Origin: Escherichia coli
GTDB lineage: Bacteria; Pseudomonadota; Gammaproteobacteria; Enterobacterales; Enterobacteriaceae
Reading direction: 5' to 3' (one strand)
Length of the DNA stretch: 1,307 nt
Assembly (NCBI RefSeq): GCF_003334815.1
Contig: NZ_QOWO01000101.1
Below the pieces are notes generated by a model. The model saw only the letters and a program-made list of their open reading frames with translations, searched no databases and was not told the DNA's origin. The translations under genes were made by a program, and so were the position numbers. Below, one piece after another: positions 1-1,307 of the stretch (position 1 is the stretch's first letter; each line of letters begins with the position of its first letter).

Positions 1-50
1 GACCCGCCGCAACGACGAAGAGCGCGTGCGCGAAACGGCGTTGCCCCTCA

Positions 51-76
51 CATCCCGGCGGCCTTTTGCCGGGATG
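51..76. other. GC-rich stem-loop (9-bp stem, 8-nt loop)
   Basis: CATCCCGGC (51-59) pairs with GCCGGGATG (68-76); loop GGCCTTTT. A second small hairpin GCGACCG-GAA-CGGTCGC lies at 111-127. Confidence 0.6.
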
Positions 77-290
77 CCGGGAGCGCAGGTCACGGCGCGA
101 CAGAGGCGGCGCGACCGGAACGGTCGCTGCAAGCCCGGGGTTTCGCGTCAGGGATGGAAGCCCGCCAGGGCGGAGACAGCTCCGCTGGCTCCGTTCACGA
201 CAGCCCGCCCCGCCAGGGGGACGCCCGGAAAAGGCATAAGCAGGAGAACAACAAAACAGACAGTAATCAGAGCAGCAGAAAAAAGAAGAA

Positions 291-353
291 CAGTAGCAGT
301 AGCAGTAGCAGTAGCAGTAGCAGTAGCAGTAGCAGTAGCAGTAGCAGTAGCAG
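291..353. repeat. perfect hexanucleotide tandem repeat (AGTAGC)x10, written CAGTAG x10 + CAG; simple-sequence repeat / VNTR-type tract
   Basis: Ten uninterrupted copies of a 6-bp unit at 292-351, with a partial copy on each side, read directly from the sequence. Imperfect AGC/AGA/AAG triplets precede it (271-290). It produces the poly-Ser, (Ala-Val)n, (Ala-Thr)n and poly-Leu runs seen in four ORF-track translations. Confidence 0.97.
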
Positions 354-425
354 GAACAACAACATCAGTAACAAACAAATGACAGGTCTGAAAAGACAGA
401 AGCCCACAGCAGAACGTCCGCGTAA

Positions 426-459
426 TGAAAGGGGCGGCGCGTCAGCGCGGCCCCTTTCA
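426..459. other. GC-rich stem-loop (10 bp + G.G mismatch + 4 bp stem, 4-nt loop)
   Basis: TGAAAGGGGC (426-435) pairs with GCCCCTTTCA (450-459); inner GCGC (437-440) pairs with GCGC (445-448); loop GTCA. Pairing checked base by base. No clean U-tract follows. Confidence 0.7.
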
Positions 460-605
460 GCGCCACCGGCGCGCGGTCTTTTCCCGGCGCGGGCAGACAG
501 GCATTTATCCTCCCGCCTGCCCGGCGTCTTCAGGCCCGCAGACGAATAATCATCATCGGAACACGTGTATAAGCAAACATGCCGCTCGACAGCTCCCCCG
601 GGAAT

Positions 606-888: not shown

Positions 889-999
889 CCTTTCTCTCCA
901 CATTAAATATTTCAGCACTATCCGGGACGACGGTGCGGCCCGATTTTCGGTACTCCAGAGCCAGTTCAGCCATCAGAGCATCTTTCGCTTAATTTCCTG

Positions 1000-1039
1000 C
1001 CCCCTGATTGCCATTAACAAATCACCAACAATCAGGGGG
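1000..1039. repeat. perfect 11-bp inverted repeat CCCCCTGATTG / CAATCAGGGGG with an 18-bp spacer; function unknown (candidate protein-binding site or RNA stem-loop)
   Basis: Arm 1 at 1000-1010 and arm 2 at 1029-1039 are exact reverse complements; spacer 1011-1028 is CCATTAACAAATCACCAA. It lies 7 nt downstream (minus sense) of the stop of the 1047..1307 CDS. No U-tract follows on either strand, so it is not called a classical intrinsic terminator. Confidence 0.85.
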
Positions 1040-1046
1040 ATAATCA

Positions 1047-1307
1047 TCACACAGGACTGCTCATGGACTGACCGGCCTGTTGGCTGAAAAGCATCATCAG
1101 TGCACTCAAATCACTGGCTTTTTTTCTGATAACTGGCGTGTGATTTTCCACGCTGTCCAACAGCGCCCCCAGTTCATCATTGATTTGCCCTAACTGTTTC
1201 ATCAGCATTTCCGCATCCAGGCTGCTCTGGTATGCAAGATTTGCCTGAACAGCACGATTCTGCATGATGTCGATTTGTGCGATTGCGTCCTTCTGCTGAT
1301 CACCGGT
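1047..1307 (-). CDS. hypothetical protein, C-terminal portion (5' end probably lies beyond the right window edge); predicted alpha-helical
   Basis: Minus-strand frame is open from the window edge (1307) to a TGA stop at 1047-1049 (complement). Visible 86 residues: TGDQQKDAIAQIDIMQNRAVQANLAYQSSLDAEMLMKQLGQINDELGALLDSVENHTPVIRKKASDLSALMMLFSQQAGQSMSSPV. Codon choice looks like a genuine gene of a ~50% GC enterobacterial-like genome (CTG, CAG, GAA, AAA). The in-window ATG at 1263-1265 has no Shine-Dalgarno upstream, so it is probably an internal Met. No protein family recognised from the sequence. Confidence 0.6.
   Translation of the reverse strand, partial: TGDQQKDAIAQIDIMQNRAVQANLAYQSSLDAEMLMKQLGQINDELGALLDSVENHTPVIRKKASDLSALMMLFSQQAGQSMSSPV

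Follow-up and report, generated by a model that had tools for sequence, protein, structure and literature searches.

Positions 1-560 of an Escherichia coli plasmid stretch as the probable flank of a Frpo/ssi single-stranded DNA promoter

Layout and composition of the locus

The window, by which we mean the whole stretch of 1,307 nucleotides (nt) analysed here, comes from Escherichia coli (assembly GCF_003334815.1, contig NZ_QOWO01000101.1) and is numbered along its + strand, 5' to 3'. Its left part (positions 1-560) is made of two GC-rich blocks separated by an A-rich linker, and its right part carries open reading frames (ORFs) on the - strand. We relate the left part to the class 1 single-stranded DNA (ssDNA) promoter hairpin of conjugative plasmids, called Frpo, ssiD or ssp1 in the F plasmid and ssi in ColIb-P9. 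The hairpins following the promoter arm (46-240) are called block 1, and those beyond the linker (421-528) block 2; the repeated unit as a whole is called the module. The features on which the analysis relies are as follows.

1-45, + strand: 3' arm, at the base of the stem, of a predicted class 1 ssDNA promoter hairpin (Frpo/ssiD/ssp1); from the ssiD match, the fold of the relative L003 and a consensus fold
51-76, + strand: hairpin A (CATCCCGGC...GCCGGGATG); from the ssDNA fold, kept across genera despite sequence differences
80-103, + strand: conserved GGGAGCGCAGGTCACGGCGCGACAG, with which the published ColIb-P9 ssi/Frpo1-3 sequences end (table in PMC11541004)
111-127, + strand: hairpin B (GCGACCG-GAA-CGGTCGC); 7 pairs, 5 of them with compensatory changes; over 29 copies, 99% of the cells are paired
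172-192, + strand: hairpin D (GGAGACAGC-TCC-GCTGGCTCC); 9 pairs, 6 of them with compensatory changes
241-420, + strand: A-rich (45%), T-poor (10%) linker, predicted to be unstructured; from composition, fold and shuffles
291-353, + strand: perfect (CAGTAG)10.5 microsatellite of variable copy number; from the repeat count
427-458, + strand: hairpin E, with the apical 20-mer GGCGGCGCGTCAGCGCGGCC at 433-452; from inverted repeat I2 and the fold
460-472, + strand: GCGCC-ACC-GGCGC hairpin; from the fold and inverted repeat
490-501 and 512-523 (within 460-523), + strand: arms of a GC-rich hairpin; from the fold and inverted repeat
530-655, - strand: 3' remnant of a class I S-adenosylmethionine (SAM)-dependent methyltransferase gene, stop codon at 530-532; from protein and DNA alignment

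A preliminary description of the window, made from its letters, had counted a mosaic of 72, 45 and 71% GC followed by about 50%, and the recomputed values (0.72 for 1-240, 0.45 for 241-420, 0.71 for 421-540 and 0.49 for 541-1307) agree with it. The base shares are A.18, C.35, G.37 and T.10 in 1-240, and A.45, C.20, G.25 and T.10 in 241-420. The A-rich middle that it described is thus real for 241-420, but the scarcity of T on the + strand reaches further and spans the entire 1-450. The closest relative matching in a single piece is L003 (19.3 kb, GC 0.527), which aligns with the full length of the window at 96.6% identity; 200-nt segments of L003 with GC of at least 0.64 are confined to the three copies of the module. 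The GC-rich/A-rich/GC-rich pattern is a specific feature of the locus and stands above chance in its context. No G-quadruplex motif (four runs of at least three G with short loops) occurs on either strand of 1-600, and a scan of the window's duplex sequence for sigma-70-type promoters gave no site.

Plasmid context and the transferred strand

The window is matched by at least 5000 plasmid records, mainly from Escherichia, Klebsiella, Salmonella and Shigella, with three to four matching places per record; about 80% of these records are typed as conjugative. Among E. coli genomes, 141 of 12774 matching places (~1%) are chromosomal. The relatives L001 and L003 share one gene order. On one side lie the tra genes, traM, the origin of transfer (oriT), an SLT transglycosylase gene, a DUF932 gene and a 95-aa ORF, after which the window follows; past the window come hok, psiA, psiB, a parB-like gene, a DUF905 gene, ssb and a class I SAM methyltransferase gene. 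The leading genes are all on the window's - strand. This places the window in the leading region of a conjugative plasmid of the F-like type (IncF, MOBF); it stops short of oriT itself, and its placement rests on relatives that are 95-98% identical.

The motif GCGTGGGGTGT/GGTGCTTT, which we take to be the nick-site (nic) sequence of F and whose position in F we located in the sequence, lies on the - strand of F (L002), the equivalent of the window's + strand. The + strand is therefore indicated to be the transferred strand (T-strand) and the template for the leading genes. In L001 and L003 the F nic motif was not found with up to three mismatches, so that the assignment there rests on synteny with F.

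The arm of the promoter hairpin

Known ssDNA promoter sequences are listed in Supplementary Table 2 of Samuel et al. (2024; PMC11541004). Against that table, the 3' end of F ssiD (Frpo; D90178), ...CCCGCCGCAACGACGTGAAGCGCGGTTTGCGAAACGGCGTTGCCCCTTA, equals window 3-50, and the 3' ends of ColIb-P9 ssi1-3 (AJ238399) match window 1-103, their final bases being those at 80-103. BLAST of the window against F aligned 1-247 at 94.8% and 2-296 at 90.7% identity. The segment 1-250 (up to 296) was found at every Frpo copy of the relatives, both F copies included, at 88-95% identity, and repeat copies that bear block 1 number four in L001, three in L003 and two in F.

The T-strand of L003 8670-9250 is predicted to fold into a long imperfect hairpin (dG -158.7 kcal/mol, z = -7.3 against shuffles), in which window 3-36 forms the foot of the 3' arm by pairing with L003 8718-8750. 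The same stem, with this pairing, came out of a consensus fold built on 23 copies of many genera. By folding energy, the + strand gives the more stable core in 31 of 31 copies. A hand tally of the pair table of the 23-copy consensus counted about 117 G.T cells in the core stem on the + strand against about 14 A.C cells. A G.T pair on one strand is a mismatch on the opposite strand or in RNA. The G.T excess on the + strand therefore fits the published action of Frpo as a folded single DNA strand (PMC9849209; PMC12672017).

Homology, a place on the T-strand of the leading region, a long hairpin and several dispersed copies all point to a class 1 Frpo/ssi element. The promoter core and apex are indicated to adjoin the window on its left and would drive the ygeA-like ORF and the DUF932 gene leftward. 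L003 holds two candidate pairs of promoter boxes, namely TTGTGG-17 nt-TGGACT near the apex and TTGACG ... TATTAA in the 5' arm, 33 nt apart. The apex itself (alignment A4, columns 214-292; outside the window) has three forms across genera, with an A/T-rich palindrome in F, a longer insert of Klebsiella type, and a short form without the A/T-rich part. We also observed further GC peaks in F (at least 64% per 200 nt) outside both Frpo copies, at 1801-2100, 3601-3900 and 4401-4700 of L002. One of them lies just upstream of an antirestriction gene, and the peaks may correspond to the recently described class 2 and class 3 ssDNA promoters.

Conserved hairpins of block 1

Homologs were collected by scanning one genome per species with an 18-mer taken from the arm. 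True homologs came from Klebsiella, Raoultella, Pantoea, Erwinia, Cedecea, Edwardsiella, Buttiauxella, Entomohabitans, Intestinirhabdus, Enterobacter and Yersinia pestis. Matches of the 18-mer in GC-rich genomes (Streptomyces, Nocardia and metagenome-assembled genomes) were judged to be chance and discarded, as was the Brenneria locus L069.

In the 29 aligned copies from about 12 enterobacterial genera, 98.8% of the cells of hairpins A, B and D are in standard pairs, and at 13 of the 21 pairs both partners have changed with the pairing retained. None of 500 column shuffles reached any of the five measures, and when the partners were slid by 1-3 columns the pairing fell to 22-48%. Block 1 occurs at about 2.7 places per plasmid. 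These observations indicate that 46-240 is a conserved array of small hairpins, attached to the promoter hairpin as part of the same dispersed repeat.

The wobble cells of block 1 on the + strand comprise 10 G.T and 1 A.C, and by folding energy this strand is the more stable one in 29 of 31 copies. The Rfam 15 covariance models, searched at a permissive threshold, gave best scores of 15-18 bits against gathering thresholds of 42-270, which is chance level. The unusual structural constraint suspected in the preliminary description is thus supported in so far as the GC blocks are predicted hairpin arrays with compensatory substitutions, but its suggestion of a structured RNA probably does not hold: G.T is far above A.C on the + strand and Rfam gave no match, so that what folds is most likely the single strand of transferred DNA. 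In one copy of the repeat (copy b, L003 10650-10885), hairpin B keeps its stem but has its loop turned round (GGAA to TTCC), as a hairpin-mediated loop inversion would produce.

The A-rich linker

The linker is essentially unpaired in the predicted fold, and its minimum free energy is no lower than that of shuffles (z = +0.76). Most homologous copies have such a linker, 100-200 nt long, with 30-53% A and 5-19% T (mostly 8-15%); between genera the composition is kept and the sequence is not. Against 10.5 units in the window, the CAGTAG array has 3.5 to 9.5 in otherwise nearly identical plasmid copies, the arrays of the relatives lying at 9291-9323 and 16322-16360 in L001 and at 9291-9335 and 16358-16414 in L003. 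Other arrays of period 6 occupy equivalent linkers, such as GAAGAG in F (upstream of the ssb copy), CAACGA x9 in Intestinirhabdus (L063) and CAACGG in Cedecea (L011). The T-depleted, A-rich linker is predicted to find no pairing partner in its surroundings, and its hexamer array is prone to slippage.

Block 2 and the methyltransferase remnant

With up to three mismatches, the 20-mer at the apex of hairpin E was found in loci of Escherichia, Klebsiella, Raoultella, Buttiauxella and Entomohabitans, on the T-strand every time and about 380-420 nt 3' of the Frpo arm. The outer stem of the hairpin covaries through compensatory substitution while the apex is nearly invariant, which suggests that some partner may recognise it in a sequence-specific manner. 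A related motif, GCGCCGCAGGCG, recurs at the position of 460-523 in many copies. Beside the stop codon of the upstream gene, a stretch of 100 nt has a GC content of 0.70-0.80 in about 19 of 28 copies, and the upstream gene itself varies. Segment 421-528 is thus indicated to be a second hairpin cluster, which normally starts right past the stop codon of the preceding gene.

In the window this preceding gene is the methyltransferase remnant, in which 24 of the last 39 residues (62%) are shared with the C-terminal end of the L003 methyltransferase (E = 2e-12). Homology of the DNA to the methyltransferase-ssb interval ends at about 655. Positions 541-645, part of what the preliminary description took for ~50% GC coding DNA, are therefore a remnant and not an intact gene. 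The remnant also indicates that the module in the window goes back to the one in the methyltransferase-ssb interval, upstream of ssb, from which it would have arisen by duplication or gene conversion.

Neighbouring genes and annotation artefacts

The genes to the right of the module, and an ORF found inside the promoter core of the relatives, are listed below.

646-888, - strand: 80-aa ORF, a leading-region gene upstream of the module
1047-1307, - strand: C-terminal part of a 98-aa ygeA-like ORF, whose start lies beyond the window
L003 8697-8903, 10351-10557 and 15764-15970 (- strand in L003) and L001 8698-8904, 10340-10546 and 15729-15935: 68-aa ORF

Neither the 80-aa ORF nor the ygeA-like ORFs had a match in NCBIfam or PHROG. 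Window 983-1307 also matches the region of the 95/98-aa ORF beside the neighbouring Frpo copy; the ygeA-like gene is duplicated in this plasmid lineage and adjoins two Frpo copies. Between the ygeA-like and the 80-aa ORFs lies a perfect 11-bp inverted repeat, CCCCCTGATTG ... CAATCAGGGGG (1000-1039), with its arms 18 nt apart.

On the + strand, T and hence stop codons are so rare that every copy has its three frames open across most of 1-550; which frame is the longest varies by copy. The scarcity of T thus explains the long Ser-rich ORFs and the frameshifted pseudogenes called by the Prokaryotic Genome Annotation Pipeline (PGAP). Such PGAP pseudogenes, named 'hypothetical protein', lie on the + strand of L001 at 8932-9414, 10616-10936, 15963-16454 and 19304-19795 and look spurious. 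The 68-aa ORF, which lies inside the Frpo core of each repeat copy and is annotated as 'single-stranded DNA-binding protein' or 'hypothetical protein', is probably an artefact as well. The + strand ORFs and the 68-aa ORF had no match in NCBIfam or PHROG.

Interpretation and proposed role

Taken together, we consider it very probable that 1-560 is a non-coding flank, in the leading region, of a Frpo/ssi ssDNA promoter and that its composition comes from hairpins formed on the T-strand. The blocks would then be GC-rich because selection favours stable hairpins within the incoming single strand, and not because they are of foreign origin. The preliminary description had left the element unnamed after considering candidates such as repetitive extragenic palindromes (REP), insertion sequence (IS) ends and integron sites; those candidates fall away, and a name, flank of the Frpo/ssi ssDNA promoter repeat, can now be put forward.

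The Frpo1 and Frpo2 elements drive early expression from ssDNA (PMC9849209). When the T-strand enters, the Frpo hairpin forms and the host RNA polymerase transcribes the leading genes, until conversion to duplex turns the promoter off (PMC9849209; PMC12672017). For F Frpo and ColIb-P9 ssi, it is known that RNA polymerase begins transcription or priming on the single strand and that SSB stimulates this (PMC9849209; PMC12672017). On this background, we tentatively propose that block 1, linker and block 2 together may act as an insulator of the promoter hairpin during the single-stranded stage, a role that we regard as possible and still doubtful. An RNA polymerase from the previous ssDNA promoter, or a DNA polymerase extending a primer, would travel 3' to 5' on the T-strand, and one that came from the upstream operon would meet block 2, the linker, block 1 and the promoter hairpin in this order. 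Stable GC hairpins in the template would be obstacles to it, and the A-rich template would yield a U-rich transcript held by a weak rU:dA hybrid. The rU:dA hybrid is the weakest of all, and intrinsic terminators use the same principle. The T-depleted linker, unable to pair with its neighbours, may let the two hairpin blocks fold independently. A polymerase stopped or slowed before it melts the Frpo hairpin would leave the promoter single-stranded and active for longer, and slowed synthesis of the complementary strand would keep the hairpin from early conversion. The invariant 20-mer hairpin could also serve as a specific binding or priming site.

Several points weigh against these proposals. 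The suggested insulator role would leave unexplained the near-invariance of the 20-mer, which hints at sequence-specific recognition. Block 2 of the window's type occurs at about 1.3 places per record, that is, about once in most plasmids, and some Frpo copies are without a block 2. A simple scan detected no canonical intrinsic terminator (a GC-rich stem of at least 5 pairs followed at once by a T-run) on the - strand of 421-540, and the sole terminator-like site on the + strand of that segment (460-472) faces the wrong way for the genes. The difference in folding energy between the strands of block 1 is -5.2 kcal/mol against -2.5 kcal/mol in mononucleotide shuffles, so that about half of it is compositional, and the difference is not significant for the window's own blocks; for this reason the wobble-pair counts were relied on for the folding strand instead. 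The -35 and -10 boxes lie outside the window, and the presence of the promoter core is inferred from the 95-98% identical relatives.

Alternative explanations

It is unlikely, in our judgement, that the hairpins act in RNA, with block 2 and the U-rich copy of the linker serving as a terminator or 3' untranslated region and block 1 as an RNA element reached by read-through. The position of block 2 beside the preceding gene's stop codon in most copies would suit such a function, as would the U/C-rich tail that follows hairpin E, read in the RNA sense, in some homologs (e.g., the Entomohabitans copy). However, the terminator scan gave nothing on the - strand of 421-540, and the tails in several genera are not U-rich. 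The G.T pairs of block 1 and of the core, in an excess of about 10:1, would moreover be A.C mismatches in RNA, and no Rfam match was obtained. A terminator role for block 2 and a role in DNA are not mutually exclusive, and both may possibly apply. Less probable again is a functionless passenger, that is, flanks spread by gene conversion between Frpo repeats and left to neutral drift. Copies within a plasmid are 90-97% alike, recombination between repeats is documented (PMC3817090), and the microsatellite varies freely, all of which speaks for neutral spread. Drift would not be expected to keep hairpins A, B, D and E across genera at 67-85% identity with compensatory changes, nor to keep the linker T-poor where its sequence is not conserved, nor to give the same layout in the MOBP plasmids of IncI1.

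The preliminary description had offered acquired DNA as one source of the unusual composition; on such a reading the segment would be an insertion or a decayed mobile element such as an IS end, an integron site or a REP-like sequence. The segment is indeed sharply unlike its flanking genes, and the unit has been copied within the plasmid, as the methyltransferase remnant attests. It nevertheless holds the same position and orientation at every Frpo copy in thousands of plasmids, IncI1 plasmids included; the same site and composition recur in at least 5000 plasmids and about 12 genera, with three to four copies per plasmid. The synteny comparison that the preliminary description had named as able to speak against a foreign origin was run, and the segment is conserved in place. 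Only about 1% of the places in E. coli genomes are chromosomal, neither terminal inverted repeats nor a transposase are present, and the conserved interior consists of hairpins with compensatory changes, so that a foreign or mobile origin is highly improbable. We give hardly any credence to a protein gene on the + strand, for which there would be two candidate ORFs, a Ser-rich one of 131 aa (154-549) and one of 118 aa (26-382). Long ORFs do exist there, and PGAP marks pseudogenes over each repeat copy; but with T so scarce all + strand frames are open, and the longest one differs between copies. Indels between copies are not multiples of three, the substitutions keep pairs and not codons, NCBIfam and PHROG gave no match, and the + strand is antisense to all leading genes. 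The flank of a Frpo/ssi promoter, folded as a single DNA strand, accordingly stays the reading that we prefer.

Significance

The element belongs to a system that gives resistance plasmids the expression of anti-defence, SOS-inhibition and SSB genes within minutes of entry, while the plasmid is still single-stranded. Naming it removes a false lead, as it would be neither an acquired island nor a new RNA, and its identity explains recurrent annotation artefacts, namely the + strand pseudogenes and the 68-aa 'SSB' ORF over the promoter hairpin. The new point is a modest one: conservation and compensatory change reach about 450 nt past the published limits of the promoter, in IncF as well as in IncI1. 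If it is true that the flank controls the duration of the single-stranded stage or shields the promoter from read-through, it would be a further control point in plasmid establishment.

Comparison with known systems

The element family itself (Frpo/ssiD, ssi1-3, the 'R' repeats, class 1) has been known since the 1990s and is still being studied actively, and the window holds one ordinary copy of its flank. The Frpo/ssiD of F (Masai and Arai, 1997), described as Frpo1/Frpo2 (Couturier et al., 2023; PMC9849209) and as 'ssp1', class 1 (Wen et al., 2025; PMC12672017), is homologous to window 1-296. It shares with the window copy its place, its orientation and the T-strand, upstream of the ygeA-like and DUF932 genes. 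The window differs in holding the outer 3' arm only, and 46-560 lies mostly beyond the published Frpo limits of 330-350 nt; compared with F at this position, the window copy adds the methyltransferase remnant and the (CAGTAG)n array. A recent preprint describes the leading region and its ssDNA promoters as GC-rich 'for unclear reasons'. In the searchable literature we found no description of the conserved flank architecture, nor of termination or insulation upstream of Frpo.

To judge from partial spans, the 'R' repeats of pO26-CRL125 (PMC3817090) apparently measure about 460 bp, which is longer than the 328-nt ssi. In ColIb-P9 (IncI1), where ssi1-3 were described (Bates et al., 1999), the ssi copies upstream of ssb and of another leading gene do not stop at 328 nt. 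Hairpin B comes next, identical to that of the window, and more hairpins follow it; after these, a short linker rich in A leads to a cluster of GC-rich hairpins that runs up to the preceding gene. ColIb-P9 differs from the window in the other hairpins that come after B (those of the Klebsiella subfamily), in its shorter linker, in a block 2 without the 20-mer of hairpin E, and in its relaxase, which is of the MOBP type.

Two other kinds of element bear on the proposed role. Intrinsic (Rho-independent) terminators are likewise GC hairpins placed after a stop codon and followed by a pyrimidine-rich or U-rich stretch of RNA. Unlike them, the flank has several hairpins, a tail of 180 nt instead of 8 nt, an invariant apex and no canonical stem with a U-tract, and the wobble bias of its neighbours points to DNA. 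The ssp2 (class 2) hairpin of F is reported to be a roadblock to complementary-strand synthesis that prolongs early expression (bioRxiv 10.64898/2026.01.09.698686), and as a stable T-strand hairpin of the leading region it offers a precedent for the role suggested here for the flank hairpins. However, ssp2 is itself a promoter, whereas the flank hairpins of the window are small and showed no promoter boxes in the scan; we claim no sequence relation between them. Across these comparisons, the three-part layout of hairpin block, T-poor linker and second hairpin block appears to be the conserved architecture of class 1 ssDNA promoter units, common to IncF and IncI1 plasmids.

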